From IMG/VR virus record IMGVR_UViG_2563366803_000006: DNA of 20,368 nucleotides, one strand, 5' to 3'. The notes beneath the pieces were generated by a model. It was given only the letters and a program-made list of their open reading frames with translations, was not told the origin of the DNA and searched no databases. Both the position numbers and the translations under genes were made by a program. This DNA is from a virus. Its lineage: Duplodnaviria; Heunggongvirae; Uroviricota; Caudoviricetes. Shown here in pieces: positions 1-19,703 of the stretch (positions are counted from its first letter, which is position 1; the number at the start of each line of letters is the position of its first letter).

Positions 1-930
1 CTATGATAACCGCGCATTCAACATGGCTATCTGTTCGTCGTTCATGTCATCAATCCACATACCGTAAATTTCATACACCATCTGCGCAGTTTCATGCCCC
101 ATTTGGCTGGCTATAAATGCCGGGTTCGCTCCTGCCGTCAACAGCCAGCAGGCAAAAGTATGCCGCGTATGGTACGGATTACGGCGGCGAATACCAGCAC
201 GTTTTACTGCTGCATTCCACCTTGCCCCCAAACTGCTTACCGAGTAATAAGGTTTTTGTTTTCCGTTACACACCCTGGGCATGAAAACAAAATGCAGTTT
301 TTGCTTTTCGGTTCTGCCGTACTCCCGATGATAAAAGGTGATTTCGCTTTTGCGATGATGCCCGGTCAGTTTGTATTGCTCCTTCAGTGCTTCAAGAGCA
401 GGCTGCAGTAGTGTTACTGTCCGGATCCCGGCATTTGTTTTTGGGGGACCGAACATATCAAGTATCGTCAGGTTTCTTCTGACATTCACTATTCCCTTTT
501 CGAGATCCACATCCTCCCACGCCAGAGCTGCCAGTTCCCCGTGACGAAGTCCTGAGTAAACTGCAAATTTCCACATGTTCTGGCTCTGTCCTTTTTCACT
601 TTCCATTAATGCATTGAATTCTGTTTTAGATAACGGATCAGGCTTTATTCTGTTTCGCTGTAATTTTTTTACTCCTTCAAATGGTTTGGTTGATATAAAT
701 CCCGACTGATACGCAAAACGTAACAGCGAACAGAGCAGGGCGATATAGTTATCAACTGTGCGCACGGTTCTTCCTTTTTTGTTGGATCTTGGATTATCCA
801 GGTAAAGCGTTTCTCCATGCAGCAGTTCATTCCGGTAGTTTAAGATATCGCTATAACGAATATGTGATATCAGGGTACTTTCACAAATTATTATTCTGAG
901 TGTTTTTAATTGTGATTTCGTTTTCTTCAT
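1..930 (-). CDS. Phage-type tyrosine recombinase (integrase); catalytic domain intact, 5' end probably truncated by IS1
   Basis: 309-codon minus-strand ORF ending with TAG at 3..1. Translation carries catalytic-domain signatures (LRHGE Arg box, HTRHT His-x-x-Arg box, VYEIYG Tyr region). Frame stays open upstream of the Met at 930 as far as the IS1 end at 965. Confidence 0.85.
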   Translation of the reverse strand: MKKTKSQLKTLRIIICESTLISHIRYSDILNYRNELLHGETLYLDNPRSNKKGRTVRTVDNYIALLCSLLRFAYQSGFISTKPFEGVKKLQRNRIKPDPLSKTEFNALMESEKGQSQNMWKFAVYSGLRHGELAALAWEDVDLEKGIVNVRRNLTILDMFGPPKTNAGIRTVTLLQPALEALKEQYKLTGHHRKSEITFYHREYGRTEKQKLHFVFMPRVCNGKQKPYYSVSSLGARWNAAVKRAGIRRRNPYHTRHTFACWLLTAGANPAFIASQMGHETAQMVYEIYGMWIDDMNDEQIAMLNARLS

Positions 931-1020
931 TGTGTTTGTTGTTAACTCTGTCTCTTTAATTTTTGGGTGATGCTGCCAACTTACTGATTTAGTGTATGAT
1001 GGTGTTTTTGAGGTGCTCCA

Positions 1021-1718: not shown

Positions 1719-1780
1719 GTTGGAGTCATTACCGCAAAGCTGTATCGCGAGGCGAATCAAGCGCAATTAAACTTTAATAG

Positions 1781-1810
1781 AACCCGCCATCAAGCGGGTT
1801 TTGTTGTTAT
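1781..1810 (+). terminator. Candidate intrinsic terminator just right of IS1 copy 1
   Basis: Hairpin AACCCGC-CATCAA-GCGGGTT (1781-1800) followed by a T-rich tract TTGTTGTTATT. Confidence 0.4.
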
Positions 1811-1841
1811 TGTGGTGTGATATAAGAAACGACATTTAATA

Positions 1842-1975
1842 TTGCCTTCAAAATAAATTTGTTTATATATTGTCGCGTATATTATAAGTGAAGGTGAAAT
1901 GTTCACATAAAATAAAAATACATAAATAAATTTACATAGCTTGACGCAAAGTGTTGTTGCGATTGGAATATTAAA
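1842..1975 (+). promoter_or_regulatory. AT-rich promoter-like region upstream of the tRNA genes
   Basis: Candidate -35/-10 pairs: TTGCCT (1842-1847) with TATATA 16 nt downstream; TTGACG (1941-1946) with TGGAAT/TATTAA downstream. No single promoter can be fixed by eye. Confidence 0.3.
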
Positions 1976-2047
1976 TCGTATCATCGAAAACGGTTCTGAG
2001 GGGGAACTCTTCTTTGCTCGGTGATATCGCTCCCCTGAAGAACCAAT

Positions 2048-2123
<76 letters not shown>

Positions 2124-2126
2124 TAT

Positions 2127-2201
<75 letters not shown>

Positions 2202-2563
2202 GCATTTAAAACAAGCCTTATTGTATTACGGCACTGGCGTATTTTTTTATTACGTGGGAGCAGGTTGTTTTGAAAAAGCATTCTGTTCTCTGGCTATGAT
2301 TTGAGGCCGGGTGTAGCCTCAGTGCTAATTTTTTACGGCAGCAGAATGGTGCATTATCGGTGGAGATTTTGTATTTCCTGGCAGGGTCGGTGATGCATCA
2401 TTTTGGTGTTGTAAAAGCACCACAGAGGCGCTCCTCAGTGCGAGGGTGGTTTAAAGAGTCGGTTTAGCGGGAAACCACAGTATCCATGCAGCACGGAATA
2501 CTTCGGGAGGCACCCGACGCCTCGGTTTAATAACAATTAAAAAATTCATCCCTTGCATTGACC

Positions 2564-2589
2564 AACCGCCATATCTGGCGGTTTTTTTT
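2564..2589 (+). terminator. Strong rho-independent terminator (candidate tR'-like late terminator or tRNA operon terminator)
   Basis: Perfect hairpin CCGCCA-TATC-TGGCGG (2566-2581) followed immediately by eight T residues (2582-2589). Confidence 0.7.
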
Positions 2590-2977
2590 ATTCCTTTCTC
2601 AGGACAAAAAAAGACACGAGCATACAGGAATACTCGTGGGACAACGTCCTTTAGATAGCAATTTGCGAGAGGGTGAAAAGTAGCGCGGTCGTCGGATTAA
2701 GACCGCGGGACAAAGTCCATGAAGAATAATAAGTATTGGCCCCTTCTGGGGACATGTTCATACTACTAAGCTTCAGAAGTGGTTTAAATCATCAAATTAA
2801 CCTTAATTTTCGATAAGTCTTATTTCATTTCTTTGCGCCACACCTGGCGCGCATCAAATAACGCCACGCAAAGGGCATCTGCGGATGCCGGTGCTTTTGA
2901 CGGGGTGTTTTTTACGGGCCGCTGGTGGCCATTTTTTGTTTCCATTACACAGCGCCCGCATCTGCGAGGTGGGGGTT

Positions 2978-3193
2978 ATGAAATCCATGGATAAGTTAAC
3001 AACAGGTGTCGCCTATGGCACCTCCGCAGGCAGTGCTGGCTACTGGTTTTTACAGTTGCTCGATAGAGTCACGCCCTCACAGTGGGCAGCAATAGGTGTG
3101 CTGGGTAGTCTGGTGTTTGGCCTGTTGACGTATCTGACAAATCTTTATTTCAAGATTAAAGAAGATAAGCGTAAGGCTGCACGGGGAGAGTAA
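2978..3193 (+). CDS. Class II holin (pinholin, phage 21 S-like) with dual-start motif
   Basis: 71-aa product [26 protein letters not shown]... with two TM segments and charged C-terminus. Met1-Lys2-Ser3-Met4 dual start. Strong SD GAGGTGGGGG directly upstream of ATG 2978. Recalled similarity to phage 21 S. Confidence 0.85.
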
Positions 3194-3197
3194 TTCA

Positions 3198-3542
3198 ATG
3201 ACTCAAAACTATGAACTGATTGTGAAAGGGATCCGCAATTTTGAGAATAAAGTTACGGTAACTTTAGCGTTACGGGACAAAAAACGCTTTGACGGTGAAA
3301 TTTTAGACCTGGACATCTCGCTGGACCGTGTTGAAGGTGCCGCGCTGGAGTTTTATGAGGCAGCAGCCAGAAGGAGCATCAGACAGGTCTTCCTGGATGT
3401 TGCTGCCGGGTTATGTGAAGGGGATGAGCAGTCACCGGAAAAGCGCCCCATAATTTTAGAGGCGCAGGGTGTGTGGATAACCTACAAAGGAAAACTGCCG
3501 GGAAGAATTACTGGTTCACTGAAGACTCCGCCGAAATGGTAA
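3198..3542 (+). CDS. Hypothetical protein inserted between holin and endolysin
   Basis: 114-codon ORF starting 5 nt after the holin stop, with a G-rich SD-like tract upstream. Soluble-looking, no recognised motif. Position matches that of unknown-function genes found between S and R in some lambdoid prophages. Confidence 0.6.
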   Translation: MTQNYELIVKGIRNFENKVTVTLALRDKKRFDGEILDLDISLDRVEGAALEFYEAAARRSIRQVFLDVAAGLCEGDEQSPEKRPIILEAQGVWITYKGKLPGRITGSLKTPPKW

Positions 3543-3600
3543 TTTCACCAGCATATTTTTCTTCCAGTAATACCGCCAGCCACTTGAAAGAATTTTGTTG

Positions 3601-3780
3601 TTACTGGGACCATTTGGGGTTGAGTGATTCAAGCTGGAGCGATGCCAGTGTTGGTTGCATTTGTTCCTTGGGAATTGAGAATGCCAGATATGAAAATGCG
3701 ACAGTAAGGGCATTTACATCATCCCGAAGCTTGGAAATGCAGTCGAGCAACTCCTGTAGAGAAATGGTGCTATTGTCCAT
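3601..3780 (-). CDS. Small hypothetical protein (59 aa), convergent with the upstream unknown gene
   Basis: ATG at 3780-3778 preceded by GAGAGGA SD-like sequence at good spacing; product MDNSTISLQELLDCISKLRDDVNAL... looks helical. Not recognisable from sequence alone. Confidence 0.4.
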   Translation of the reverse strand: MDNSTISLQELLDCISKLRDDVNALTVAFSYLAFSIPKEQMQPTLASLQLESLNPKWSQ

Positions 3781-3885
3781 AAACAATCCTCTCTATTGTA
3801 TTTAACTATTCCTTGCCTGATTCAACAGGCCGGGACAGATAAACATATCCAGGGTTCAGAAACCGATAAATCCTGATAAATATCC

Positions 3886-4383
3886 ATGAACGCAAAAATC
3901 AGATACGGCCTGTCGGCTGCCGTTCTGGCACTGATTGCCGTCGGTGCGCCTGCGCCTGATATTCTCGACCAGTTTCTGGATGAAAAAGAAGGTAACCACA
4001 CAACGGCATACCGCGATGGTTCCGGTATATGGACCATCTGTCGTGGTGCCACAATGGTGGATGGTAAGCCCGTCATACCGGGAATGAGGCTGTCGAAGGA
4101 AAAATGCGACCAGGTTAACGCTATTGAACGTGATAAGGCGCTGGCATGGGTGGAGCGCAATATTAAAGTACCACTGACCGAACCACAGAAAGCGGGTATA
4201 GCGTCATTTTGTCCCTATAACATTGGCCCCGGTAAGTGTTTCCCGTCGACGTTTTATAAGCGGCTGAATGCCGGTGATCGTAAGGGTGCATGCGAGGCGA
4301 TTCGCTGGTGGATAAAAGATGGTGGGCGCGATTGCCGCATACGTTCAAATAACTGCTATGGACAGGTTATTCGTCGTGACTAG
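3886..4383 (+). CDS. SAR endolysin (T4-lysozyme-type muramidase with N-terminal signal-anchor-release domain)
   Basis: 165 aa. N-terminal weakly hydrophobic Ala/Gly-rich segment ([17 protein letters not shown]), then E-x8-D-x5-T catalytic spacing ([16 protein letters not shown]). Sits downstream of a pinholin. Confidence 0.85.
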
Positions 4384-4415
4384 GAAAGCGCATTAGCCTG
4401 TTGGGGGATAGATCA

Positions 4416-4880
4416 GTGAGCAGAGTCGCCGCGATTATTTATGCTCTGGTTATCTGCATCATCGTCTGCCTGTCATGGGCTGTTAATCATTACCGTGATA
4501 ACGCCACCGCCTACAAAGAGCAGCGCGACAAAAATGCCAGAGAACTGAAGCTGGCGAACGCGGCAATTACTGACATGCAGATGCGTCAGCGTGATGTTGC
4601 TGCGCTCGATGCAAAATACACGAAGGAGTTAGCTGATGCGAAAGCTGAAAATGATGCTCTGCGTGATGATGTTGCCGCTGGTCGTCGTCGGTTGCACATC
4701 AAAGCAGTCTGTCAGTCAGTGCGTGAAGCCACCACCGCCTCCGGCGTGGATAATGCAGCCTCCCCCCGACTGGCAGACACCGCTGAACGGGATTATTTCA
4801 CCCTCCGGGAACGACTGGTAATGATGCAGGCCCAACTTGAAGGTGCTCAGCAATACATAACCGAACAGTGTTTAAAGTAA
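4416..4880 (+). CDS. Rz: Rz i-spanin
   Basis: 154 aa from GTG 4416 (SD-like GGGGGA upstream): [30 protein letters not shown]... with N-terminal TM helix and coiled-coil periplasmic domain. Near-identical to lambda Rz as I recall it. Confidence 0.9.
4636..4821 (+). CDS. Rz1: Rz1 o-spanin lipoprotein, embedded in the +1 frame of Rz
   Basis: 61 aa [24 protein letters not shown]... with lipobox (VVGC) and proline-rich mature region; lies entirely within Rz. Confidence 0.85.
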
Positions 4881-5017
4881 AATCTTAACTACAATATGAT
4901 TCATTTTGATGATTGTTTCATAAGGAACAGTGAAGTAAGATCTAAGAGGAGTTAAATTTTATACAGTATAATCATAATATTGCAGCAAGGTGGTTATAAT
5001 TGAAAGAATATTTAGAT

Positions 5018-6475
5018 ATGAATACATCTCATGTAAGAGTTGTTACTCATATGTGTGGGTTCCTGGTTTGGCTCTATAGTCTTTCAATGTTGCCACCAAT
5101 GGTTGTAGCATTGTTTTATAAAGAAAAAAGCCTGTTCGTTTTCTTTATAACTTTCGTTATATTTTTTTGTATTGGTGGCGGAGCGTGGTATACAACTAAG
5201 AAATCTGGCATTCAATTACGTACCCGTGATGGGTTTATTATAATTGTAATGTTTTGGATTTTGTTTTCTGTTATTAGTGCATTCCCTTTATGGATTGACT
5301 CAGAACTTAATTTAACGTTCATTGATGCTCTGTTTGAAGGGGTTTCTGGAATAACAACAACAGGAGCAACTGTAATTGATGATGTTAGTTCATTACCTCG
5401 GGCATATTTGTACTATCGGTCACAGTTAAATTTTATAGGTGGTTTAGGAGTTATTGTTCTGGCGGTTGCTGTATTGCCATTATTGGGTATTGGTGGTGCA
5501 AAGCTTTATCAGTCAGAAATGCCGGGGCCATTTAAGGATGACAAACTCACTCCCCGCCTGGCCGATACGTCACGGACACTGTGGATAACTTATTCTTTAT
5601 TAGGTATTGCTTGTATTGTCTGTTATAGACTTGCAGGAATGCCTTTGTTTGATGCTATTTGTCACGGGATTTCCACAGTTTCGCTTGGTGGTTTCTCAAC
5701 TCATAGCGAGAGTATCGGATATTTTAATAACTATTTGGTTGAGCTGGTGGCTGGTTCTTTTTCCCTGCTATCGGCTTTCAACTTCACTCTTTGGTATATT
5801 GTTATTAGCAGGAAAACGATAAAACCTTTAATCAGAGATATTGAACTTCGTTTCTTTCTGTTAATAGCCTTAGGGGTGATCATTGTTACCTCTTTCCAGG
5901 TCTGGCATATAGGTATGTATGACTTGCATGGAAGTTTTATTCATTCGTTTTTTCTTGCCAGCTCCATGCTCACTGATAATGGTTTAGCTACGCAGGATTA
6001 TGCAAGCTGGCCCACGCACACGATAGTGTTTTTGCTGTTGTCAAGTTTCTTTGGGGGATGTATAGGTTCAACTTGTGGTGGAATTAAGTCACTTCGATTT
6101 CTTATACTTTTCAAACAAAGCAAACACGAGATAAATCAGCTTTCTCATCCCAGAGCGTTGTTGAGTGTAAATGTAGGAGGGAAGATAGTTACAGATCGTG
6201 TAATGAGGTCTGTATGGAGTTTCTTTTTTCTTTATACTCTCTTCACGGTGTTTTTTATACTGGTGTTAAATGGTATGGGATATGATTTTCTTACATCATT
6301 TGCAACAGTGGCTGCATGTATTAATAATATGGGATTAGGTTTTGGGGCTACTGCATCGTCATTCGGAGTGCTTAATGACATTGCAAAATATTTAATGTGC
6401 ATAGCTATGATTCTTGGTCGCCTTGAAATTTATCCTGTTATTATATTGTTTTCAGGTTTTTTTTGGCGCTCCTAA
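5018..6475 (+). CDS. trkG: TrkG/TrkH-family K+ uptake membrane protein (prophage-borne trkG)
   Basis: 485 aa from ATG 5018; multi-pass membrane protein with TrkH-type motifs (GITTTGATV, GIGGAKLYQSEMPGP, GSTCGGIK). Markedly AT-rich coding sequence. Alternative TTG start at 5000 has a better SD (AAGGTGG). Confidence 0.9.
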   Translation: MNTSHVRVVTHMCGFLVWLYSLSMLPPMVVALFYKEKSLFVFFITFVIFFCIGGGAWYTTKKSGIQLRTRDGFIIIVMFWILFSVISAFPLWIDSELNLTFIDALFEGVSGITTTGATVIDDVSSLPRAYLYYRSQLNFIGGLGVIVLAVAVLPLLGIGGAKLYQSEMPGPFKDDKLTPRLADTSRTLWITYSLLGIACIVCYRLAGMPLFDAICHGISTVSLGGFSTHSESIGYFNNYLVELVAGSFSLLSAFNFTLWYIVISRKTIKPLIRDIELRFFLLIALGVIIVTSFQVWHIGMYDLHGSFIHSFFLASSMLTDNGLATQDYASWPTHTIVFLLLSSFFGGCIGSTCGGIKSLRFLILFKQSKHEINQLSHPRALLSVNVGGKIVTDRVMRSVWSFFFLYTLFTVFFILVLNGMGYDFLTSFATVAACINNMGLGFGATASSFGVLNDIAKYLMCIAMILGRLEIYPVIILFSGFFWRS

Positions 6476-6561
6476 TATATGGCTGATTTATAATTGTGAG
6501 TTTAATATTATGTTGACTCACTCATTGATCCAATACTTAACTTTACCAGCAACACCTCCGC

Positions 6562-6597
6562 CCCCAGTAGCACTGGCTGCTGGGGTGCGTTTTATTC
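6562..6597 (+). terminator. Candidate terminator after trkG
   Basis: Inverted repeat CCCCAG (6562-6567) / CTGGGG (6580-6585) with a 12-nt loop, followed by GCGTTTTATT. Confidence 0.3.
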
Positions 6598-6612
6598 ATA
6601 AAGCAAGGATGT

Positions 6613-7404
6613 ATGAGCGAGAAATTAAAGATAGTCTATCGCCCATTACAAGAATTGTCACCGTATGCGCACAACGCCAGGACGCACAGCCCTGAGCAGG
6701 TGGCACAACTGGTAGAAAGTATTAAGCAATTCGGCTGGACTAATCCGGTGCTGATTGACGAAAAGGGCGAAATTATTGCGGGTCACGGTCGTGTTATGGC
6801 GGCTGAAATGCTCAAAATGGATTCTGTTCCGGTCATTGTTCTGTCTGGCCTGACGGATGAGCAGAAAAAGGCGTACCGCCTGGCAGATAATCGCCTGCCG
6901 ATGAATGCTGGCTGGGATGAAGATCTGTTGCGGATGGAGCTGTCGGACCTAATCAATGCTGATTTTGATGTCTCCCTGACAGGCTTCATCCCGACAGAAA
7001 TTGATGAACTGTTGACGGATGTTTTGCCCGGTACAGGAAATGAGGAGGAGCCGTATACGACGAAAATTGATACGCCTGTTTATGAGCCGTCGGGCGGTAA
7101 ACCGGATATCAGTGAACTGTACGACGATACGAAAACGCAGGAGCTGATCAGCCGGATACGTTCGGCTTCCCTTGAGCCTGATATTGAGAAATTCCTCCTG
7201 TGTGCGGCAGAACGTCACACGGTGTTTAATTTCAGCAGAATTGCGGACTATTACGCTCACGCCCCCGCTGAAATTCAGTGTTTTTTCGAGGAGTCGGCGC
7301 TGGTGATCATTGATTATCAGCAGGCTATTGAAAATGGATTTGTCCGGATGACGCAGCGCATGGTGGAGATCATGCATGGTGGTGAGGAGGAGGAATATGC
7401 GTGA
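6613..7404 (+). CDS. ParB-like nuclease (ParB/sulfiredoxin N-terminal) domain protein
   Basis: 263 aa. N-terminal region with ParB-box-like GHGR motif (GEIIAGHGRVMAAEM), acidic C-terminus. SD AAGGA upstream of ATG 6613. Confidence 0.75.
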   Translation: MSEKLKIVYRPLQELSPYAHNARTHSPEQVAQLVESIKQFGWTNPVLIDEKGEIIAGHGRVMAAEMLKMDSVPVIVLSGLTDEQKKAYRLADNRLPMNAGWDEDLLRMELSDLINADFDVSLTGFIPTEIDELLTDVLPGTGNEEEPYTTKIDTPVYEPSGGKPDISELYDDTKTQELISRIRSASLEPDIEKFLLCAAERHTVFNFSRIADYYAHAPAEIQCFFEESALVIIDYQQAIENGFVRMTQRMVEIMHGGEEEEYA

Positions 7405-8329
7405 TGATTTTTGCGCCTTTATTCTGACTCACGGGCGACCGGACAAAGTTCTGACTTACCGGACGTTGCGTCGTGCTGGCTATACCGGGAAAATTTTTAT
7501 CGTTGTTGATGATGAAGATAAGACACGGCATCAGTACATGGCTGAATTTGGTGAACAGGTGCTGGTGTTTTCCAAAACCGATATCGCCAGTCGTTTTGAC
7601 GAAGCCGATAATTTCTGTGACCGCCGCTCAATTTTTTACGCCCGTAATGCCTGTTTCGACCTGGCAAAACTGGTCGGGTGTAAATACTTCATTCAGCTCG
7701 ATGATGATTATCACGAGTTCCAGTTTCGGGTGGATCGCAACTATGACCAGGCCTATTTTCCGATAAGGAAACTGGATGCGATCCTTTCTGAAATGCTGGC
7801 GTACTACGAATCAATACCTGCTCTTTCCATCGCTATGTCGCAGGGCGGGGATTTTCTTGGTGACAATGGCGGCCATGCTTCGTGGGTGAAACGCAAGGCA
7901 ATGAACAGCTTTATCTGTTCGGTTGATCGACCGTTCTCATTCATGGGGCGCATTAACGAGGATGTGAATACGTACACGAATCTCGGTCGCTGTGGTGAAT
8001 TGTTTATGACGATCGGTGCTGTCCAGTTAGGGCAGAAACAGACGCAGAAAAACAGCGGCGGAATGACCGAGCTGTATCTGGATTCCGGAACCTACGTTAA
8101 AAGTTTTTACTCCGTCATGTATGCGCCGTCGTGCGTAAAAATTTCACTGATGGGTGCCAGCCATAAACGCATTCACCATCAGGTCACCTGGAACAACGCT
8201 GCAGTAAAAATCCTTCACGAAAAATACAGGAAGAAGACACCCTGCATATCAATGGGGGTGACAAATGATTCCGTATTCGAAAGTCGAGTCTCTGGCAGCG
8301 TGCCGGATGACTGCACAACAAATCGCTGA
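7397..8329 (+). CDS. Hypothetical protein with GT-A-like nucleotide-sugar transferase signature (DxD-type)
   Basis: ATG 7397 preceded by strong SD GAGGAGGAGGAA and overlapping the ParB-like stop (translational coupling). Alternating beta-strand/acidic pattern (FILTHGRPD, IFIVVDDEDK, YFIQLDDDYHEF). Function inferred only from this pattern. Confidence 0.6.
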   Translation: MRDDFCAFILTHGRPDKVLTYRTLRRAGYTGKIFIVVDDEDKTRHQYMAEFGEQVLVFSKTDIASRFDEADNFCDRRSIFYARNACFDLAKLVGCKYFIQLDDDYHEFQFRVDRNYDQAYFPIRKLDAILSEMLAYYESIPALSIAMSQGGDFLGDNGGHASWVKRKAMNSFICSVDRPFSFMGRINEDVNTYTNLGRCGELFMTIGAVQLGQKQTQKNSGGMTELYLDSGTYVKSFYSVMYAPSCVKISLMGASHKRIHHQVTWNNAAVKILHEKYRKKTPCISMGVTNDSVFESRVSGSVPDDCTTNR

Positions 8330-8516
8330 CGTTCTGGATGTTGATCTGAACCGACTGAAAGAAAATCGGGAAGCAATGACAGATTTTTATGCGGCCATCC
8401 GTAAGGGCAGAGCGAAAGGTGAAGCCGAGTTACGAGCGGCATTGTTTAAGCTTGCCAGAAAAGGGGATGCCTTTGCTCTGCGCGAACTACTCAGGGTGGA
8501 TAAAAATCAGGACTAA
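8307..8516 (+). CDS. Small putative DNA-binding (HTH-like) protein upstream of terS
   Basis: 69 aa MTAQQIADVLDVDLNRLKENRE... helical and basic; start overlaps the upstream gene; stop is 3 nt before the terS ATG and in the same frame. Confidence 0.5.
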   Translation: MTAQQIADVLDVDLNRLKENREAMTDFYAAIRKGRAKGEAELRAALFKLARKGDAFALRELLRVDKNQD

Positions 8517-8519
8517 CTG

Positions 8520-9614
8520 ATGAGCAGACCGGACTGGGGGGCGTTGCAGCAGGAGTATATTGCTGAATACACCCGCTCCGGTATATCTCCGGTGGCATGG
8601 TGTGAAGCAAGGGGACTGAATTACGCAACAGCCCGTCGTTACATCAAAAAAACTCCGAAAAATGCGCAGACAGAAATGCGCAAAACTGCGCAAAAAAGTG
8701 CGCAGAAAAAATCTGCGCAGACTGCACAAAAGCGGAACGAAAAATCTCAGGAAAAAAAGCCAGTATTCGATGCGGGCCTGAATGAGGGCGACGCGGAGGA
8801 ATTTTCGTTCTGTCCCGATGAATTCGGCATTTCTGACCAGCAGGCTAAGTTTGCGATGCTTGTTGCTCAGGGTAAAAAGCCGACAGAGGCGTACCGACTA
8901 GCCGGTTATGAGGGGCAAGGTGCGACAGCTAACAGCAACGCCAGTCGTATGCTTAGAAATGCCAGGGTTTATCGTGCTATCAGCTACTTCCGCAATCAGT
9001 ACCAGAAACGCTATACCGCAGACCTGGATTTACTGGTGAGCCAGTTGATGGTCATTGTCCAGGCCGACCCCAATCAGTTGGCACAATTTCGCCGTGTTAA
9101 CTGCCGTTATTGCTGGGGCGAGAATCATCTCTACCAGTGGCGTGATATTGCAGAATTCGATAAGGCTGCGGCACAGGCCTCCAGAGATGGTAAACCCGAG
9201 CCGGAATATGGAGGCCTCGGCTTTGTTGATAACGCCATACCCAATCCGGATTGCCCGAAGTGCTGCGGTGAGGGAACGGGACAGCTTTATATGGCTGATA
9301 CCACACTGCTTGATGGGGATGCGCGGCAATTATATGCAGGGTCAAAGCTCGGAAAATACGGTGTTGAGATCCTGCTGGAGGATAAGGCTGCCGCCCGGCG
9401 TGAATTGTTGCGTTTGCTTTCTGCTGGCGGGGCATTATGTGCAGATAAGCGGCTACAGGAACTGGAAATTGAACGGCGCAGAATAGAAAACCAGAAGCTG
9501 CACAAAGAGATCGAAACGGTGGAAGATAATGAACATCCCCAGCCTGTGGCGATCAATATTAATGTGGTTGATGCCAGAGTAAGGAGTGATGAAGATGATC
9601 TCTCCGACGCTTAA
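8520..9614 (+). CDS. Terminase small subunit (long form with N-terminal HTH, AQK low-complexity linker, Terminase_2-like core and C-terminal Cys cluster)
   Basis: 364 aa. Core motif AYRLAGYEGQGATANSNASRMLRNARVYRAI typical of small terminase subunits; lies immediately upstream of and overlaps terL; CRYC...CPKCC cysteines at 9102-9266. Confidence 0.7.
   Translation: MSRPDWGALQQEYIAEYTRSGISPVAWCEARGLNYATARRYIKKTPKNAQTEMRKTAQKSAQKKSAQTAQKRNEKSQEKKPVFDAGLNEGDAEEFSFCPDEFGISDQQAKFAMLVAQGKKPTEAYRLAGYEGQGATANSNASRMLRNARVYRAISYFRNQYQKRYTADLDLLVSQLMVIVQADPNQLAQFRRVNCRYCWGENHLYQWRDIAEFDKAAAQASRDGKPEPEYGGLGFVDNAIPNPDCPKCCGEGTGQLYMADTTLLDGDARQLYAGSKLGKYGVEILLEDKAAARRELLRLLSAGGALCADKRLQELEIERRRIENQKLHKEIETVEDNEHPQPVAININVVDARVRSDEDDLSDA
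8663..8728. repeat. Cluster of five TGCGCA hexamers (plus one TGCACA) inside terS
   Basis: Exact TGCGCA at 8663, 8677, 8687, 8699 and 8714, each followed by an A-rich tract; encodes the AQK-repeat linker of TerS. Confidence 0.8.
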
Positions 9615-10896
9615 TGTGCCTCAGGCGCGATTTCTTTCAATGCCCCATAAATTTAAAGCCTATATTGCTGGTTTTGGCTCGGGCAAAACATGGGTTGGGT
9701 GTGGCGGCATATGCAAGGGGATTTGGGAGCATCCAGGTATAAATCAGGGATATTTTGCGCCAACGTATCCCCAAATTCGCGATATTTTTTACCCTACAGT
9801 GGAAGAAGTTGCTGCTGACTGGGGATTGAACGTAAAAATTAATGAGGGAAATAAAGAGGTTCACTTTTATTACGGACGCCAGTATCGGGGAACCACTGTC
9901 TGCAGATCGATGGAGAAGCCACAAACGATCGTCGGTTTCAAAATTGGTAATGCGTTGGTGGATGAACTGGACATTTTGCCGAAGGAAAAAGCCAGAACGG
10001 CGTGGCGCAAGATAATTGCACGTATGCGTTATAAGATTGATGGACTTCGCAACGGTATTGACGTTACAACCACGCCGGAAGGATTCAAATTTGTCTACGA
10101 GCAGTTTGTTAAAGCCGTGCGTGAAAAAACAGAGCTGGCCTCACTGTATGGTCTGGTGCAGGCATCTACTTTCGATAATGAAAAGAACCTGCCAGCAGAT
10201 TACATTCCTTCGCTTCTTGAATCATACCCTCCAGAGCTGATTAAAGCCTATCTTCGAGGACAGTTTACTAACCTGACAAGTGGTACTGTTTACCATCAGT
10301 TTGACCGGAAACTGAATAATTGCGAAGAAGTGGAGCAGCCAGGGGAGCCGATTTATATTGGGATGGATTTTAACGTTGGAAAGATGGCGGGAATCGTCCA
10401 TGTGCTGCGTTTGGGGCTTCCATGTGCGGTAACTGAAATCATCAATGCCTACGATACGCCGGATATGATCCGCATCATTAAAGAACGCTTCTGGCTGTAT
10501 GATGGGAATGATTACCGGAAAGTGAGGGAAATTTATATTTATCCAGATGCTTCCGGGGACTCCAGAAAATCAAGTAACGCAAGTACGACGGATATAGCCC
10601 AGCTTAAGCAGGCTGGTTTTAACGTTGTGGTGAACAGCTCGAACCCGCCAGTAAAAGATCGCGTTAACTCAATGAATGCAATGTTCTGCAATGCCAATGG
10701 TGAGCGTCGCTATAAAGTTAATGTGAAGCGTTGCCCGTTATATGCCGAATCTCTGGAGCAACAGGTCTGGGATGAGAAGGGGGAGCCTGATAAAAAATCT
10801 GGCAATGATCACCCGAATGATGCCGGAGGTTATTTCATCGTTAAGCAATTCCCTATTGTCAAACCGACCGGAAGAGTCACATCACTTCGGATTTAA
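9595..10896 (+). CDS. Terminase large subunit
   Basis: Walker A-like YIAGFGSGKTW near the N-terminus; C-terminal nuclease-like region; SD AAGGAG (9581-9586) 8 nt before ATG 9595. In-frame alternatives at GTG 9586 and ATG 9589. Confidence 0.9.
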   Translation: MISPTLNVPQARFLSMPHKFKAYIAGFGSGKTWVGCGGICKGIWEHPGINQGYFAPTYPQIRDIFYPTVEEVAADWGLNVKINEGNKEVHFYYGRQYRGTTVCRSMEKPQTIVGFKIGNALVDELDILPKEKARTAWRKIIARMRYKIDGLRNGIDVTTTPEGFKFVYEQFVKAVREKTELASLYGLVQASTFDNEKNLPADYIPSLLESYPPELIKAYLRGQFTNLTSGTVYHQFDRKLNNCEEVEQPGEPIYIGMDFNVGKMAGIVHVLRLGLPCAVTEIINAYDTPDMIRIIKERFWLYDGNDYRKVREIYIYPDASGDSRKSSNASTTDIAQLKQAGFNVVVNSSNPPVKDRVNSMNAMFCNANGERRYKVNVKRCPLYAESLEQQVWDEKGEPDKKSGNDHPNDAGGYFIVKQFPIVKPTGRVTSLRI

Positions 10897-10898
10897 TT

Positions 10899-12305
10899 AT
10901 GGCTGATATATCAACACCCAACCTCGACTATAACGATATGCTGGAGGCGTGGGATATTAACGACGCACTGATGGGCGGTACGCTTGAAATGCGCAGGCAG
11001 GGGGAAAATTATCTCCCAAAATGGCCTAACGAAGATGAAGACGCTTATAAAAAACGCCTGTCTGTGGCTACGCTACTTCCTGTGTATGAAGAAAGCATCA
11101 AGCAAAATATTGGGCGCATATTTGCAGAGCCGACAGTATTGAGTGAGGAAACGCCGGCAAAAATCAGGGAATATGCAGAAAATATCGACATGGAGGGGAG
11201 CCGACTGGATGTGTGGGCGCAGCAATTTTTCAGCCTCGCATTTCAGTATGGTGTGGCACATGCGCTGGTGGACTATCCACGAACGGATATGAAAGAGATT
11301 CGGACAAAAGCCGATGAAAACGCGACCGGTGGTCGTCCGTACGTTACGATGCTGAATCCACGCCAGGTTATTGGATGGAAATCGAAAGTTGAAAAAGGGA
11401 AAGTTGTTCTCACTGATTTGCGTATAAAAGAGGTCATCATTATTGATGGTGATGATTTCGGGCAGAAGAAGGTGGAGCAGATCCGCCATATTATGCCCCG
11501 TCGAGTTGAAATTTATCGACGTAGCGAAGGCACTAATGGCGAATCTGTCTGGACGCTTCATGAGTCATGGAATACCAGCCGTGATGATATTCCTCTGGTA
11601 ACACTGTACACGAAGAAAACAGGATTTATGCGTGGTACACCGCCATTGCTTAATCTTGGCTTGCTGAATATCAAGCACTGGCAAAGCCAGAGCGAGCAGG
11701 ACAATATTCTTCATGTTGCCCGCGTTCCATTGCTGGTGGCCTACGGGCTGGACAGGAATGAAGAACTGACGGTTGGTGCATCCACCGCTACGATTTTTGA
11801 GGACAGAACAAAAAATGGCCTCGAATATGTTGAACATAGTGGCGCAGCGATAGAATCTGGCGAAACATCACTTGAGAAGCTGGAAAATCAGATGCGTCAT
11901 GCCGGCGCTAAACTTCTGCGTGCTGAAAATACATCCACCAAATCTGTTGATCAGACTAATGAAGAGCGAATGCAGGAAAACTCGCCGCTTTATACAATGG
12001 CGAACTCCCTCGAAGATGCCCTCGATAATATTCTCCAGATAATGGCGGAATGGATCGGAGAGAGTTGCGGTGGCAATGTGGATGTGCGCACTGAACTGGA
12101 TGTATCTGCCCAGGTGTTTGACTCATCCTCCGCGCTGGCTGTTCAGTCATTGCGTCAGGGCGGTGATATACGTCAGATTGATGCGGTTCGGGTGTTGCAG
12201 GCGTTGAAATTTATCGATCAGGATTCCCGTCCAGAGGAAGTGATCGATGAATTAAAAAATCAGAGTGTAATGCTGATGGAAATCAATGATGCAAACCGTG
12301 AATGA
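10899..12305 (+). CDS. Portal protein
   Basis: 468 aa, directly downstream of terL; size and position in the terS-terL-portal order typical of portal proteins. Confidence 0.8.
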   Translation: MADISTPNLDYNDMLEAWDINDALMGGTLEMRRQGENYLPKWPNEDEDAYKKRLSVATLLPVYEESIKQNIGRIFAEPTVLSEETPAKIREYAENIDMEGSRLDVWAQQFFSLAFQYGVAHALVDYPRTDMKEIRTKADENATGGRPYVTMLNPRQVIGWKSKVEKGKVVLTDLRIKEVIIIDGDDFGQKKVEQIRHIMPRRVEIYRRSEGTNGESVWTLHESWNTSRDDIPLVTLYTKKTGFMRGTPPLLNLGLLNIKHWQSQSEQDNILHVARVPLLVAYGLDRNEELTVGASTATIFEDRTKNGLEYVEHSGAAIESGETSLEKLENQMRHAGAKLLRAENTSTKSVDQTNEERMQENSPLYTMANSLEDALDNILQIMAEWIGESCGGNVDVRTELDVSAQVFDSSSALAVQSLRQGGDIRQIDAVRVLQALKFIDQDSRPEEVIDELKNQSVMLMEINDANRE

Positions 12306-13401
12306 ACGGCTGCGTGATGAATCAATTGCTCATGCAGTCTGGATATCCCGCTATAGCACTGGCGTGGCTGCCAGAATGGTGAAAATACTGAATGACAGCG
12401 ATGCGGAACTTACTGCTCGCCTGCTGATAGCACTGGACAGCCTCGATCCAGGTAGTTTTACCGTTAAGCGCCTGGAGTCACTTCTGGCGAGCGTCAGAGA
12501 GGTTAACCGCACTGCTATTAACAGCATGTTTACCAGTCTCTCCGGAGAGCTGAACGAGCTGGCAATTTATGAGGCTGGTTATCAGTTAAGTCTGTTTGAT
12601 TCTATGCTACCTGATTTTGTTGCTGATGTTCACCCTCTGGTTGGTATCTCTCCTGATGCACTTTATGCCGCTGCAATGGCGCGACCATTCCAGGGACGAC
12701 TGCTCAGTGAGTGGGCCTCAGATCTTGAGGCGGATCGGCTCAGACGCATAACAAATACAGTGCGTCAGGGTTTTTTGCTGGGGGATACCAATGAGCAGAT
12801 CGCAAGAAAAATTCGGGGACATGTCAGTAAGGGATTTCAGGATGGTGCATTGCAGATGAGCCGGGCTAATGCGGCCAGCATTGCAAAAACAGCGGTTGGA
12901 CATCTTGCTGCTACTGCCCGTGAGAGTTTTGCCAGCGCGAATAATGATTTGATTAAGGGTAAGCAATGGTTATCAACGCTTGATAATCGTACTACGCCAC
13001 AATGTCGAATCAGGGATCGCCTCAAATATACGCTGAATAATAAACCTGTAGGTCACAGCGTGCCTTATTTGCAGGGGCCGGGAAAAATTCATTTCTGCTG
13101 CCGCTCAACGGAAACGTTCATTCTGAAATCAGCGAAGGAACTGGGTATTGATGTTCGCGATATTTCCCCGGCTGAGCGGGCCAGCATGGATGGCGTGGTG
13201 GCCGGAGATACAACCTACAGGGAATGGTTTTTGCGTCAGCCTTACACCAGACAAAAACAGATTGTGGGGGAAACCCGAGCAAAGCTGATTCGGGATGGTG
13301 GTATGTCGCCAGATGAATTTTACACCGATAAAGGCGAATGGCTGACGCTGAAGCAGCTCCGTGAGCGTGATGCACAGGTATTCAGAAAAGCAGGGATTTA
13401 A
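12286..13401 (+). CDS. Head morphogenesis / minor head protein (SPP1 gp7 / Mu F-like position)
   Basis: 371 aa, overlaps the portal 3' end by 20 nt; called mainly from gene order (portal, then minor head protein, then scaffold, then capsid). Confidence 0.55.
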   Translation: MMQTVNERLRDESIAHAVWISRYSTGVAARMVKILNDSDAELTARLLIALDSLDPGSFTVKRLESLLASVREVNRTAINSMFTSLSGELNELAIYEAGYQLSLFDSMLPDFVADVHPLVGISPDALYAAAMARPFQGRLLSEWASDLEADRLRRITNTVRQGFLLGDTNEQIARKIRGHVSKGFQDGALQMSRANAASIAKTAVGHLAATARESFASANNDLIKGKQWLSTLDNRTTPQCRIRDRLKYTLNNKPVGHSVPYLQGPGKIHFCCRSTETFILKSAKELGIDVRDISPAERASMDGVVAGDTTYREWFLRQPYTRQKQIVGETRAKLIRDGGMSPDEFYTDKGEWLTLKQLRERDAQVFRKAGI

Positions 13402-13420
13402 ATAAATCATTTATTACAAC

Positions 13421-13447
13421 AGGCTACCTTCGGGTGGCCTTTTTTAT
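13421..13447 (+). terminator. Intrinsic terminator between head morphogenesis and scaffold genes
   Basis: Hairpin AGGCTACC-TTCG-GGTGGCCT (one G-U pair, TTCG tetraloop) followed by TTTTTTATT. Confidence 0.7.
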
Positions 13448-13505
13448 TGCTGCGATCCGGATGGTGAGCAGCGTAACTGTCGGAAGACTTAAACCAGGTA
13501 CTAAT

Positions 13506-14270
13506 ATGAAACTGAAAACGGTCGAGATTAACGGAAAACAATACGCAGAAATTGATACTGCTGGCCTGCCAGTTTATGTGCACGACGATGGTAAAGAAAT
13601 TGGCTTCGATGCACCGCTGGCGACAAAAAAAATTACAGAGCTTAATGGCGAGGCAAAAAATCATCGCCTGGCTAAAGAAGCTGCAGAGGAAAAACTGGCT
13701 AAGTTTGCCGCTATCGAAGACCCGAAGAAGGCGATCGAGGCACTGGAAATGCTGTCAAAAATCGACCAGAAAAAGCTGCTCGATGCGGGACAGGTTGACC
13801 AGGTTAAGGCAGAAATTACGAAAAATTTTCAGCAGCAATTAGATGAAGAAAAGCAACGCTCTCAGATGCTGGAGAAGCAGCTTTACGATTCTATGATTGG
13901 CGGTAGTTTTGCGGGTTCAAAATATATTGCCGATAAAATTGCGATCCCGGCAGATTTATTACAAGCCCGCTTCGGGCAGGCATTCAAAGTGGAAGAAGGG
14001 AGGATCGTTGCTTATGACGCTTCCGGCAACAAAATTTATTCCCGCGCGAAGCCTGGCGAACTGGCGCAGTTTGATGAGGCGCTGGAGTTCCTTGTCGAAA
14101 ATTACCCTCAGAAAGACTACATCCTGAAAGCCAGTGGCAACAATGGCGGCGGCTCCCGTCCGACACAGCATGATATTGGTCAGAAAACGATGAAACGCTC
14201 TGCTTTTGATGCACTGGATGTTGCAGGTAAGCAAAACGCATTGAAAGACGGTATCACAATCGTTGATTAA
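13506..14270 (+). CDS. Scaffolding protein (putative)
   Basis: About 254 aa from ATG 13506 (MKLKTVEINGK...), highly charged and helical; lies between the head morphogenesis and capsid genes. The ORF-track start at 13434 overlaps the terminator hairpin and is less likely. Confidence 0.55.
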   Translation: MKLKTVEINGKQYAEIDTAGLPVYVHDDGKEIGFDAPLATKKITELNGEAKNHRLAKEAAEEKLAKFAAIEDPKKAIEALEMLSKIDQKKLLDAGQVDQVKAEITKNFQQQLDEEKQRSQMLEKQLYDSMIGGSFAGSKYIADKIAIPADLLQARFGQAFKVEEGRIVAYDASGNKIYSRAKPGELAQFDEALEFLVENYPQKDYILKASGNNGGGSRPTQHDIGQKTMKRSAFDALDVAGKQNALKDGITIVD

Positions 14271-14368
14271 CACATTTGTCAGCTTCCGGATGGGAGCTGG
14301 TGTCAGGGCTGGATAGCTCATTACTCCATCTATTCACAATTACGCAAATTTTTAAGGAATATTTAATT

Positions 14369-15508
14369 ATGGCTGGAAATACCCTGACCGGGTTGATCCC
14401 GACTATTTATACCGCCCTGGATGTTGTATCCCGTGAGCAGGTAGGTTTTATCCCTGCGGTAGCAAAAAACGCAAAAGCTGACGCCGCAGCAAAAGATCAG
14501 ACGGTAACCGCGCCAGTTGCGCCTGAGGCGAAAACCGAAGATATCGTACCGGGGCCGTCAGCTCCGAATACCGGTGATCAAAATATTGGCACTGTTGATG
14601 TAAAAATTACTAAATCCAAAATGGCACCGGTTAAATGGAATGGTGAAGAACAACTGGCTCTTGGCCCTTCAGGGACTTACAACACCATTCTGGCTGATCA
14701 GTTCAAGCAGGCTTTTCGCGCCCTTGCAAACGAGGTTGAGGCTGATCTTGGTGCGTTGTATTTCGGTGCTTCCCGCGCCGTGGGAACCGCAGGGACAACG
14801 CCGTTTGGTGTTAAAGATGATCTTTCTGATGCTGCTCTGGCTCGTCAGGTTCTGGAGGATAACGGCGCACCGACAACCGATCTGCAGATGGTGCTTGGCT
14901 CCACTGCCATTGCTAATTTGCGCGGAAAACAGTCTGTATTGTTTAAAGTGAATGAATCCGGCACTGAACAGCTACTGCGTGAGGGCGTGTTGGGGCGTCT
15001 GGAGGGATTCAATATTCACAGTTCGGCAGGTGTGAAACGAGCGCCAAAGGTTGCTGCAACTGGTTATCTCGTGAATGGAGAGAAAAAAGAAGGCGATGTT
15101 CTTATTTCCATTGATACTGGTTCGGGGAGTATTTCTGCAGGTCAGATTGTTACGTTCGCTGGTGATCCGAATCAGTATGTTGTGGCAGCAGCGACCAGCA
15201 ATCTGATTACTCTTGCAGCGCCCGGACTGCGTCAGGATCTGGCCGATGATACTGCCATCACAGTTGTTGGGGCCTTTACTGCAAATATGGCGTTTGATCG
15301 CAACGCGTTTCTGCTGGCATCCCGTACTCCGGCAATGCCGGAAGGTGGCGATAATGCTGATGATGTAATGAATGTTACGGACCCGATTTCAGGGATTACG
15401 TTCCAGATTGCACTGTATCGTCAGTATCGCCAGGTGCGCTATGAAGTTGGACTGGCATGGGGTGTTTCATCAGTGAAGCCGGCACATGGTTGTCTGATTC
15501 TTGGTTAA
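14369..15508 (+). CDS. Major capsid protein (putative)
   Basis: About 379 aa from ATG 14369 (SD AAGGAA upstream), MAGNTLTGLIPTIYTALDVV...; position after scaffold and followed by a terminator; size typical of a major capsid protein. Confidence 0.7.
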   Translation: MAGNTLTGLIPTIYTALDVVSREQVGFIPAVAKNAKADAAAKDQTVTAPVAPEAKTEDIVPGPSAPNTGDQNIGTVDVKITKSKMAPVKWNGEEQLALGPSGTYNTILADQFKQAFRALANEVEADLGALYFGASRAVGTAGTTPFGVKDDLSDAALARQVLEDNGAPTTDLQMVLGSTAIANLRGKQSVLFKVNESGTEQLLREGVLGRLEGFNIHSSAGVKRAPKVAATGYLVNGEKKEGDVLISIDTGSGSISAGQIVTFAGDPNQYVVAAATSNLITLAAPGLRQDLADDTAITVVGAFTANMAFDRNAFLLASRTPAMPEGGDNADDVMNVTDPISGITFQIALYRQYRQVRYEVGLAWGVSSVKPAHGCLILG

Positions 15509-15518
15509 ACATTCAAAC

Positions 15519-15538
15519 GGGGCTTCGGCCCCATTTTT
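15519..15538 (+). terminator. Intrinsic terminator after the capsid gene
   Basis: Hairpin GGGGC-TTCG-GCCCC followed by ATTTTTAA, 11 nt after the capsid stop. Confidence 0.65.
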
Positions 15539-15550
15539 AATGGGGGGCAT

Positions 15551-15727
15551 ATGGCCGGATTAACTAAAGAGCAAAGAGCACAGCGTGAAGCCGCACAAAA
15601 AACGCAAATTGAGTTAGTGGTTATGGTGACCGATTATCAGATGTTTCCCGGCGCACCAACTATCGCTAATGTTCATCCTGATGAAGTTGACAACTGGAAG
15701 GCTATGGGCTGGAAAACTCAGGAGTAA
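15551..15727 (+). CDS. Small hypothetical protein (58 aa) between capsid and connector genes
   Basis: ATG 15551 preceded by a G-rich tract; stop TAA 15725-15727 lies 3 nt before the next gene's ATG. Product MAGLTKEQRAQREAAQKTQIELVVMVTDYQMFPGAPTIANVHPDEVDNWKAMGWKTQE. Below the length cutoff of the supplied ORF track. Confidence 0.4.
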   Translation: MAGLTKEQRAQREAAQKTQIELVVMVTDYQMFPGAPTIANVHPDEVDNWKAMGWKTQE

Positions 15728-15730
15728 CAC

Positions 15731-16126
15731 ATGATCACTTACGTGACCTGTGATGACGTTGATAATGCGTTTGGGAACGCCTGGACGAGTGAGAACGCTA
15801 AAAATAAAGCTGTTTTAATGGCTAATGCCTGGCTTAATGGCTTCAACCTGAAAATTAACCCATCCCGTATTCCGGAAGAGGTAAAACTTGCGGGAGCATA
15901 TGCAGCCAGAATTGCCTCATTCGGTAAGTTGTTTCAGCAGAAAAATGATTCTGGCGTTGTTATCAGTAAAGCCGTGTCGGCTGACGGGGTCAGTGTATCG
16001 AAATCATTTTCTGAGTTGCCAGCAAACAGCACTGCATTGCTTGAACCCGATTTACAGCTTGCGATAGCACTGCTGAAACCGTACGGACTTAGTCGCTCAC
16101 AAGTCAGGGTTGTGAGGGGGGGATAA
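15731..16126 (+). CDS. Head-tail connector/adaptor protein (gp6-like, putative)
   Basis: 131 aa, SD AGGAG upstream; first gene after the capsid in a run of four small tightly packed genes. Confidence 0.5.
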   Translation: MITYVTCDDVDNAFGNAWTSENAKNKAVLMANAWLNGFNLKINPSRIPEEVKLAGAYAARIASFGKLFQQKNDSGVVISKAVSADGVSVSKSFSELPANSTALLEPDLQLAIALLKPYGLSRSQVRVVRGG

Positions 16127-16509
16127 TGGGGCTTCGTGAAGAGATTCAGTCAGAGGTTGCCGCTGCTTTTGATGAGGATTTAGCGGACGCCGTGAGTGAT
16201 TTTTCTGGTTCTTACGTTACGCACCGGCACTGGGATCCTGTGACGGAAACTGGCGGCGAATCCACCGCAATCTATACCGGGCGAGGCGTGTTGACACGTT
16301 ATAAGCTGGGCAGAATTGATGGGATTAATATTTTGCATGGTGACCTTAAATTAACCGCTCTGGTATGCGAGGTTACGGATAAACCAGCTGTCGACCATAT
16401 TATTGAGATTTATGATCCTGTATCAAGGCAGTTACAACGATACGAGGTAATTACAGCAAGTGTAGATCCTTCCGCATCAGTTTACTCTATCCAGTTAAGG
16501 AGAGCGTAA
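16126..16509 (+). CDS. Head-tail joining / head closure protein (putative)
   Basis: 127 aa; start overlaps the previous stop (TAATGG); called from position. Confidence 0.45.
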   Translation: MGLREEIQSEVAAAFDEDLADAVSDFSGSYVTHRHWDPVTETGGESTAIYTGRGVLTRYKLGRIDGINILHGDLKLTALVCEVTDKPAVDHIIEIYDPVSRQLQRYEVITASVDPSASVYSIQLRRA

Positions 16510-16890
16510 ATGGCAAAGGCATGGGATATAGAACCGTCAATATTTGCCGGGATGATTGAGGAAGATGTAGGGCTGAAGATTCGCTACATCGCTATGCAGA
16601 TTCTTACTGCTATTGATATTGCTGCTCCGGTTGATACCGGACGTTTCAGAAATAACAACCTGGTGTCGTTACAGCATCCCGATTTTGGTATATCTGATAA
16701 CGTGGATCCGAACGGTACGATTGCTGTTCAGCGTGGGATCGGGGTTATTTCGAAAGCTGCAAATTACGGGGTTATTTATATCCAGAATAACCTTCCTTAT
16801 GCAGAGGCTCTTGAAAACGGTCATTCACAACAAGCGCCAACTGGCGTGTATGCCAACGCTTTTCATGGTGTTTTACAGGCTTACAAATGA
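16510..16890 (+). CDS. Neck/tail component, HK97 gp10-like (putative)
   Basis: 126 aa; position and size; gp10-like assignment is recalled family resemblance, not a search result. Confidence 0.5.
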   Translation: MAKAWDIEPSIFAGMIEEDVGLKIRYIAMQILTAIDIAAPVDTGRFRNNNLVSLQHPDFGISDNVDPNGTIAVQRGIGVISKAANYGVIYIQNNLPYAEALENGHSQQAPTGVYANAFHGVLQAYK

Positions 16891-17279
16891 AGTTTACTGA
16901 AATCAGAAATACGGTTATTTCCAGAATGACGGCACAGACGATTATTGATGGAAAAGACGTATTGTATCCGAACGGGCCAACGTTCGATCCTTCCGGTAAG
17001 TTAATCTGGGCGCGGTTAAGTAATATTCCCGGGCAGGCTGGAGTTAATGAAATTGGCGCGGGGCCGGTTGTTTATCGCACGGGGATAATCATTATTCAGT
17101 TATTTGTCCCCGCAGGTTCTGGTTCAAAACTCATTACTGAGACAGCCGATAAATTGCGGGAACTGTTTGAGTTTCAGGATGACGATCGTCTCAGTTACCA
17201 GGCTGTTTCCTCAATAGCCGTCGGCGAAAAGAATGGCTGGTTCCAGCTTAATCTTCAAATTCCATATCGCGCGCTCTAG
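16887..17279 (+). CDS. Tail completion / tail terminator protein (putative)
   Basis: 130 aa; ATGA start-stop overlap with the previous gene; immediately upstream of the major tail protein gene. Confidence 0.45.
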   Translation: MKFTEIRNTVISRMTAQTIIDGKDVLYPNGPTFDPSGKLIWARLSNIPGQAGVNEIGAGPVVYRTGIIIIQLFVPAGSGSKLITETADKLRELFEFQDDDRLSYQAVSSIAVGEKNGWFQLNLQIPYRAL

Positions 17280-17305
17280 CGCAATTAATGACATAGGAGG
17301 CTCCT

Positions 17306-19688: not shown

Positions 19689-19703
19689 GTTGGAGTCATT
19701 ACC

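Follow-up and report, generated by a model that had tools for sequence, protein, structure and literature searches.

The window, by which we mean the whole stretch of viral DNA analysed (20,368 nucleotides, IMG/VR record IMGVR_UViG_2563366803_000006), carries a potassium transporter gene, trkG, within the late region of a Rac-type prophage. As the initial annotation had placed it, the gene lies between the lysis genes and the packaging module: Rz ends at 4880 and a ParB-like gene starts at 6613. The features of the window are these.

1–965, minus strand: 3′ part of intR, the Rac integrase gene, cut by IS1; 99.4% identical to K-12 intR (K-12 locus L001, 3001–3965); Pfam Phage_integrase
966–1733, plus: IS1 copy A, 768 bp, insA/insB; direct repeat of 18936–19703 at 99.7%; Pfam DDE_Tnp_IS1
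2048–2201, plus: tRNA-Thr(TGT) and tRNA-Gly(TCC), 5′ of the lysis cassette; ARAGORN
2885–4880, plus: lysis cassette (holin, YdfR/DUF1327, lysozyme, Rz, embedded Rz1)
2885–3193, plus: holin; Pfam Phage_holin_2_1
3198–3542, plus: YdfR/DUF1327; Pfam DUF1327
3886–4383, plus: lysozyme; Pfam Phage_lysozyme
4416–4880, plus: Rz i-spanin; Pfam Phage_lysis
4636–4821, plus: Rz1 o-spanin inside Rz; lipobox LVVVGC in the translation
4881–5017, plus: AT-rich spacer 5′ of trkG, its promoter region; 25.5% G+C; AAGGTGG at 4986–4992
5018–6475, plus: trkG, membrane subunit of the Trk K+ uptake system, 485 aa; Pfam TrkH, E=3.8e-144
6476–6545, plus: 3′ end of the insert, AT-rich; not similar to the M8 prophage, which lacks trkG
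6562–6595, plus: terminator-like hairpin and T-run, in the backbone stretch before the ParB-like gene; consensus scan, fold
6613–7404, plus: ParB/Srx-like gene, 263 aa, full-length form of K-12 ynaK; Pfam ParB_N; phrog_620
7397–8329, plus: TAGT-family (‘GREB1-related’) glycosyltransferase; PF20691 TAGT, E=3.3e-35; phrog_842, E=7e-104; RefSeq product name
8520–18268, plus: packaging, head and proximal tail genes missing from K-12; Pfam and the annotation of a 99.6%-identical prophage (L002)
8520–9614, plus: terS
9595–10896, plus: terL
10899–12305, plus: portal
12289–13401, plus: MuF-like minor head
13434–14270, plus: DUF6651
14369–15508, plus: major capsid, P22-type
between major capsid and tail tube, plus: connector and terminator genes
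17306–18268, plus: tail tube
18317–18778, plus: tail assembly chaperone; phrog_313, E=4e-46; 3′ part is K-12 ydaY
18936–19703, plus: IS1 copy B, direct repeat of copy A

The prophage and its boundaries

Membership of the Rac type is evident from the 99.4% identity of intR and from synteny with Rac. Window position 1 corresponds to position 3001 of the K-12 locus, the last base of intR; the attachment site and ttcA fall outside the window. The two IS1 copies, which are in direct orientation and differ from each other at two bases, bracket the late region, and the left copy truncates intR. Their terminal repeats are present, while the flanks show no matching target duplication. No early region and no Q-type antiterminator gene remain between intR and the tRNA genes, and the window also lacks the distal tail genes. 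The window prophage is a remnant: the integrase gene is cut short by IS1, and the two copies stand where the early and distal tail regions would be. The exact IS1 configuration occurs in none of the complete E. coli genomes searched, the best records covering 1733–18945 only, a result that points to a host lineage rich in IS1. The source may be a relative with many IS1 copies, such as Shigella; the single Shigella locus compared is only 97% identical to the window. Beyond IS1 copy B, at 19796–20368, an unrelated tail-fibre gene is represented by its 3′ part, which includes a Peptidase_S74 intramolecular chaperone domain and has no match in either Rac reference locus.

Several smaller features of the map deserve mention. 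The tRNA-Thr(TGT)/tRNA-Gly(TCC) pair is also annotated in full-length Rac-type prophages. From the tRNAs to the holin, some 760 bases (2202–2966) differ from the corresponding 280 bases of the prophage of strain EC1722-1 and recur, 99.8% identical, in genomes such as that of strain 1428. Just 5′ of terS (8307–8516), an open reading frame of 69 residues matches the middle of phrog_309 (157–218 of 319, E=1e-17); this is a small-terminase family, and the frame could, by its sequence, be a split or duplicated piece of terS. The ParB/Srx-like gene overlaps the TAGT glycosyltransferase gene (6613–8329), likewise just 5′ of terS, and such a pair adjoins the terminase also in the Lactobacillus phages phiLdb, c5 and jlb1. 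ParB-like proteins activate phage DNA-modifying dioxygenases according to a 2026 paper (PMC13229309); no dioxygenase gene lies within the window.

The trkG gene and its product

Which member of the Trk family does the gene encode? The protein matches Pfam PF02386 (TrkH) over its full length, at profile positions 3–500 of 502 (481 bits, cut-off 27), and scores 414 bits against the NCBIfam TrkH-family subfamily model TIGR00933, above the cut-off of 331. Against the TrkH equivalog NF008020 it reaches 452 bits, below the cut-off of 866. It is identical to K-12 TrkG at 484 of 485 residues, the single change being C458Y. The full-length Pfam match and this near-identity bear out the earlier assignment to the TrkG/TrkH family; the near-identity, together with the failure to reach the TrkH equivalog cut-off, identifies the gene by sequence comparison as Rac TrkG, the orthologue of b1363, and not TrkH. 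The trkG gene also has a PHROG family of its own, phrog_1916.

The protein aligns end to end with the solved Vibrio TrkH (4j9u/3pjz, E=4e-121). The TrkH proteins of E. coli and Vibrio parahaemolyticus share its fold family and align over the full length, but they are paralogues of TrkG, not orthologues. The four pore-loop motifs TTTGAT, SLGGFS, TDNGLA and NNMGLG, which we take from the TrkH structure to be those of the selectivity filter, match their Vibrio counterparts with all four glycines kept, and these glycine motifs are invariant in 11 homologues.

The N-terminus may extend further than annotated. A TTG at 5000 has the Shine–Dalgarno-like AAGGTGG (4986–4992) 7 bases upstream; nothing comparable precedes the annotated ATG at 5018. 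Many homologues, and phrog_1916, are 491 residues long, with a six-residue extension. The true start may thus be TTG 5000, giving 491 rather than 485 residues.

The first description of trkG is reportedly a paper of 1991. For K-12, both the 38% G+C of the gene and its location in Rac are published, and its product, which shares with the host system the host-encoded cytoplasmic gating protein TrkA, mediates Na+-dependent K+ uptake and also takes up Na+; its role in K+ supply is only a supporting one, exerted when Na+ is present (PMC9898762).

Base composition and borders of the insert

The initial annotation had judged trkG, by eye, to be lower in G+C than its neighbours and had proposed a windowed calculation. 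The calculation agrees: the G+C of trkG is 0.380, against 0.491 for the lysis genes on the left and 0.496 for the 3 kb on the right. The segment 4881–6610 as a whole stands at 0.372, and the lowest value among 1518 other intervals of 1730 bases is 0.445, so that in composition the segment deviates from the surrounding phage genes as a moron does. The upstream region, also described earlier as AT-rich, is the extreme case, with a G+C of 0.255 at 4881–5017. At third codon positions the value for trkG is 0.323, compared with 0.42–0.55 for the adjoining genes. The dip is therefore steepest at the third codon positions of trkG and in the non-coding spacer.

If the segment is an insertion, where does it begin and end? 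The prophage of E. coli M8 is informative here. It has a Q-type gene, a tRNA pair of identical type, a different lysis cassette and the ParB–TAGT–terS block at 94.6% identity, with no trkG before that block. Its similarity to the window starts near 6547 and covers the hairpin region and the ParB ribosome-binding site, which puts the right border of the trkG insert at about 6545. On the left, since the M8 lysis cassette is different, the border is fixed only by the stop codon of Rz and the step in composition. Other relatives fill the same slot differently: phage PhiR49_2 has a lysis cassette of the window's type followed by different cargo, and Klebsiella phages with an 85–87% identical large terminase have other small genes there. 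A slot that lacks trkG in one relative (M8) and is otherwise occupied in others is a further moron trait. Direct or inverted repeats flanking the borders amounted to short, chance-level pairs only, and so give no sign of a transposon or an integration scar. We conclude that the insert comprises about 4881–6545, some 1.66 kb of foreign composition, in a variable slot between the lysis cassette and the ParB–TAGT–terminase genes.

Promoter and downstream hairpin

How is the gene likely to be transcribed? A consensus promoter scan of 4300–7000 returned 6 sites, against 6.6 expected from shuffled sequences, and the best site near trkG (TTTAAA-18-TATGAT, 4871–4900) is weak. The evidence for a promoter belonging to trkG therefore comes not from the scan but from published experiments on K-12, whose upstream spacer is the same as that of the window at 137 of 137 bases. 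There, RNA polymerase sigma-70 holoenzyme gives a constitutive SELEX binding peak at the trkG promoter, and trkG is stated to have entered Rac together with its promoter (PMC5811629). The region upstream of trkG is active in promoter–reporter assays, uninduced K-12 shows both trkG promoter activity and transcript, and H-NS/StpA partly repress the gene (PMC9898762). The high-affinity H-NS motif TCGATAAATT, with up to two mismatches allowed, matched 30 times against 26 expected, and none of the matches lies in the upstream spacer. An Rfam scan of 4600–6900, at E up to 1, returned no match, hence no known riboswitch or small RNA beside trkG.

A terminator-like hairpin downstream of trkG, which had been attributed to the gene, does exist: the consensus terminator scan places a stem at 6562–6585, followed by TGCGTTTTAT, with a folding energy of −27 kcal/mol (z=−3.0 relative to shuffled sequences). 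It is not private to trkG: the M8 prophage, which lacks the gene, has this stretch too, and this assigns the hairpin to the backbone before the ParB-like gene. Together with the ParB ribosome-binding site it makes up a conserved intergenic unit (6547–6612), present in M8 (L033, about 7001–7071) 3′ of a different gene, with a weaker stem and a longer T-run.

Comparison with Rac of K-12 and with full-length prophages

The Rac prophage of K-12 is known to be incomplete, and a fuller version has been described in another strain (PMC6379469). What exactly has K-12 lost? In the alignment, which the initial annotation had called for, K-12 Rac is syntenic with the window and matches it at 4443–6866 (99.3%) and at 18427–18945, both stretches at 99.2–99.3%. 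Since the matches end at 6866 and resume at 18427, K-12 lost 6867–18426, or 11.56 kb. This right-hand deletion took the last two-thirds of the ParB-like gene, the glycosyltransferase (whose gene, 7397–8329, is missing from K-12), every packaging and head gene, the tail tube gene and the opening 37 codons of the gene for the tail assembly chaperone; at its junction GATGAGCAGAA meets GCAGCGAT, with two bases shared. A left-hand deletion of 8.6 kb starts midway through ydaW and stops at codon 10 of Rz.

These deletions account for two K-12 genes. YnaK is a truncated form, the first ~85 residues, of the window's ParB-like protein, and the placing of trkG in Rac beside a ParB-like gene proves correct, ynaK being the start of the gene at 6613–7404. 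YdaY consists of residues 39–153 of the chaperone open reading frame, preceded by MSRS from the ynaK region. K-12 ydaY (L001, 16622–16981) is thus a chimera made by the deletion, with its ATG taken from another frame of ynaK and the remainder from the 3′ part of the chaperone gene. Of the two neighbours that had been named for trkG, ynaK stands; ydaY lies 11.6 kb downstream in the undeleted arrangement and was brought beside ynaK by the K-12 deletion.

Around trkG itself K-12 and the window agree closely. In both, a Rz gene (a remnant in K-12) adjoins on the left and the start of the ParB-like gene on the right. No base differs between the two in the spacer upstream of trkG, and three do in the one downstream. 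K-12 lacks most of the late regulatory and lysis genes (the 8.6 kb) as well as 6867–18426, while the window keeps both stretches. Unlike K-12 Rac, the window is without the early region and distal tail genes, and IS1 copies lie at its edges. The earlier view of the window as a more complete version of the Rac arrangement therefore holds for the terminase, portal, head and tail-tube genes, all of which are kept; it does not extend to an intact Rac.

Full-length prophages of this type are integrated at ttcA, as in E. coli EC1722-1 (NZ_CP081192), whose prophage is 99.6% identical to window 2966–18945, and in the phage record vB_EcoS-683R6 (ON470595). From the holin to the tail assembly chaperone their gene order is that of the window; they have in addition recET, repressor and replication genes, a Q-type gene, the tape measure and the tail tip, all of which the window lacks.

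Homologues and distribution of trkG

Proteins 62–79% identical to TrkG occur across the Enterobacterales. Five close homologues whose context we examined are chromosomal and non-phage, in five different neighbourhoods with a G+C of 0.42–0.57. These loci (L024, L027, L030, L031 and L032; E. fergusonii, Enterobacter, Citrobacter, Pectobacterium and a metagenome contig) each hold a single TrkG-type gene, 70–79% identical, amid unrelated neighbours, a pattern which suggests that a TrkG-type gene moves on its own among Enterobacterales. The Enterobacter homologue, 70% identical, has a G+C of 0.567 and a GC3 of 0.72, from which it follows that the protein sequence does not force a low G+C. None of the proteins qualifies as the donor, the nearest one outside the E. 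coli cluster being only 79% identical.

How often is the element retained? At 80% coverage or more it is present, as a single copy, in 1542 of 5426 complete E. coli genomes, with 1517 records at 99% identity or better, although these counts are not of independent events, owing to shared ancestry and the over-representation of K-12 and B strains. Coverage falls below 80% in only 9 of the 1551 genomes with a match. The ParB–glycosyltransferase block, on the other hand, is complete in 907 of the 1638 genomes with any match to it; in about 45% it has been shortened or is gone. Of the 5426 genomes, 847 contain at least 80% of the 4-kb block that runs from Rz to the glycosyltransferase, as do ten phage records. 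Forty of the genomes that match the ParB–glycosyltransferase block, taken as a spread sample, show right-hand matches ending 3′ of the trkG stop codon at no fewer than nine different positions, and each of these end-points leaves trkG whole. Fifteen matches to the trkG element are on records labelled plasmid.

Discussion

We are highly confident that trkG is a moron, a self-contained additional gene carried by a Rac-type lambdoid prophage of Escherichia coli. How might such a gene work? Published work on the identical K-12 sequence points to a sigma-70 promoter of its own in the AT-rich spacer, from which trkG would be expressed in the lysogen independently of the phage late operon. The hairpin at 6562–6585 would restrict the passage of transcription into the packaging genes. 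Were the phage complete, late transcription modified by Q would presumably traverse trkG as well; in the window, a remnant that lacks the Q gene, its own promoter is the only evident route to expression. The gene was probably captured from a bacterial chromosome of lower G+C than that of E. coli, since those close homologues whose context we examined are chromosomal genes of other Enterobacterales, with non-phage surroundings.

Might trkG instead be an old, native gene of the phage lineage, its low G+C reflecting the hydrophobic make-up of a membrane protein or a drift towards AT? Among phage-collection records, trkG is present in every one that covers most of the 4-kb query from Rz to the glycosyltransferase, and also in the Escherichia/Shigella loci with a near-identical ParB gene among species-representative genomes, and the separate family phrog_1916 fits a long residence in phages. 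But hydrophobicity does not explain the G+C-rich Enterobacter homologue, nor a drop that is strongest at third codon positions and in non-coding DNA; moreover, M8 has ParB–TAGT–terS without trkG, and all five of the close homologues examined are chromosomal. We regard a native origin as extremely improbable. A mainly lytic function, in which a late-transcript gene tunes host K+ or membrane potential for the timing of lysis, for packaging or for phage exclusion rather than raising the fitness of the lysogen, has in its favour the late-operon orientation of trkG directly 3′ of the spanin genes, by virtue of which late transcripts would include it. Such a function sits poorly with an intact trkG in remnants unable to grow lytically, both K-12 Rac and the window without its Q-type gene, with the contrast between 9 incomplete elements in 1551 genomes and the frequent erosion of the adjacent ParB–glycosyltransferase block, and with the promoter activity and transcript of uninduced K-12 (PMC9898762). 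We think it very unlikely.

There remains the question of why the gene persists. Were it neutral cargo that survives by position, the deletions sparing it would reflect no more than the removal of harmful late genes; H-NS repression and the modest published contribution to K+ supply (PMC9898762) agree with that, and many of the 1542 genomes are related, K-12 and B strains being over-represented. Yet trkG has kept an unbroken reading frame whose product differs by one amino acid between the window and K-12, the K-12 deletions stop short of trkG on both sides, and the varied right-hand end-points in the 40 sampled genomes all leave it whole, so that we judge neutrality unlikely. More tentatively, and with more doubt than conviction, we suggest that decaying Rac prophages have been whittled around trkG by independent deletions and IS1 events, in K-12, B strains, the window and others, which took away lytic genes on either side but left the 1.66-kb insert, and that trkG, our moron, now serves the host as a domesticated gene that is selected for, perhaps because it supplies K+ in the Na+-rich gut. 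If this were true, Rac would offer a quantified example of prophage domestication around one cargo gene, given a survey of breakpoints and phylogeny.

Much of this is ordinary. The trkG gene, its low G+C, its prophage location, promoter, H-NS repression and transport properties are already known, and fuller Rac-type prophages are annotated in hundreds of genomes, so that the significance of another goes little beyond bookkeeping. A search for literature treating trkG as a ‘moron’ found nothing relevant. The by-products of the analysis are the exact K-12 loss, ydaY as a chimera, the right-hand border of the insert and the five differing chromosomal neighbourhoods of TrkG-type genes.

How does trkG compare with morons as they are usually understood? 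The concept is said to come from the HK97/HK022 comparisons of Juhala et al. 2000, and a terminator of its own is part of the classical definition of a moron. In this respect trkG differs from the classical cases, for its downstream hairpin is common to a relative without trkG and may not have come with the insert. It differs also in direction from lambda bor: trkG has the orientation of the late operon, bor the opposite one. Otherwise it resembles the classical lambdoid morons, lambda bor and lom: like them it is an added late-region gene whose composition stands out and which relatives lack, and in the lysogen it is probably expressed from a promoter of its own.
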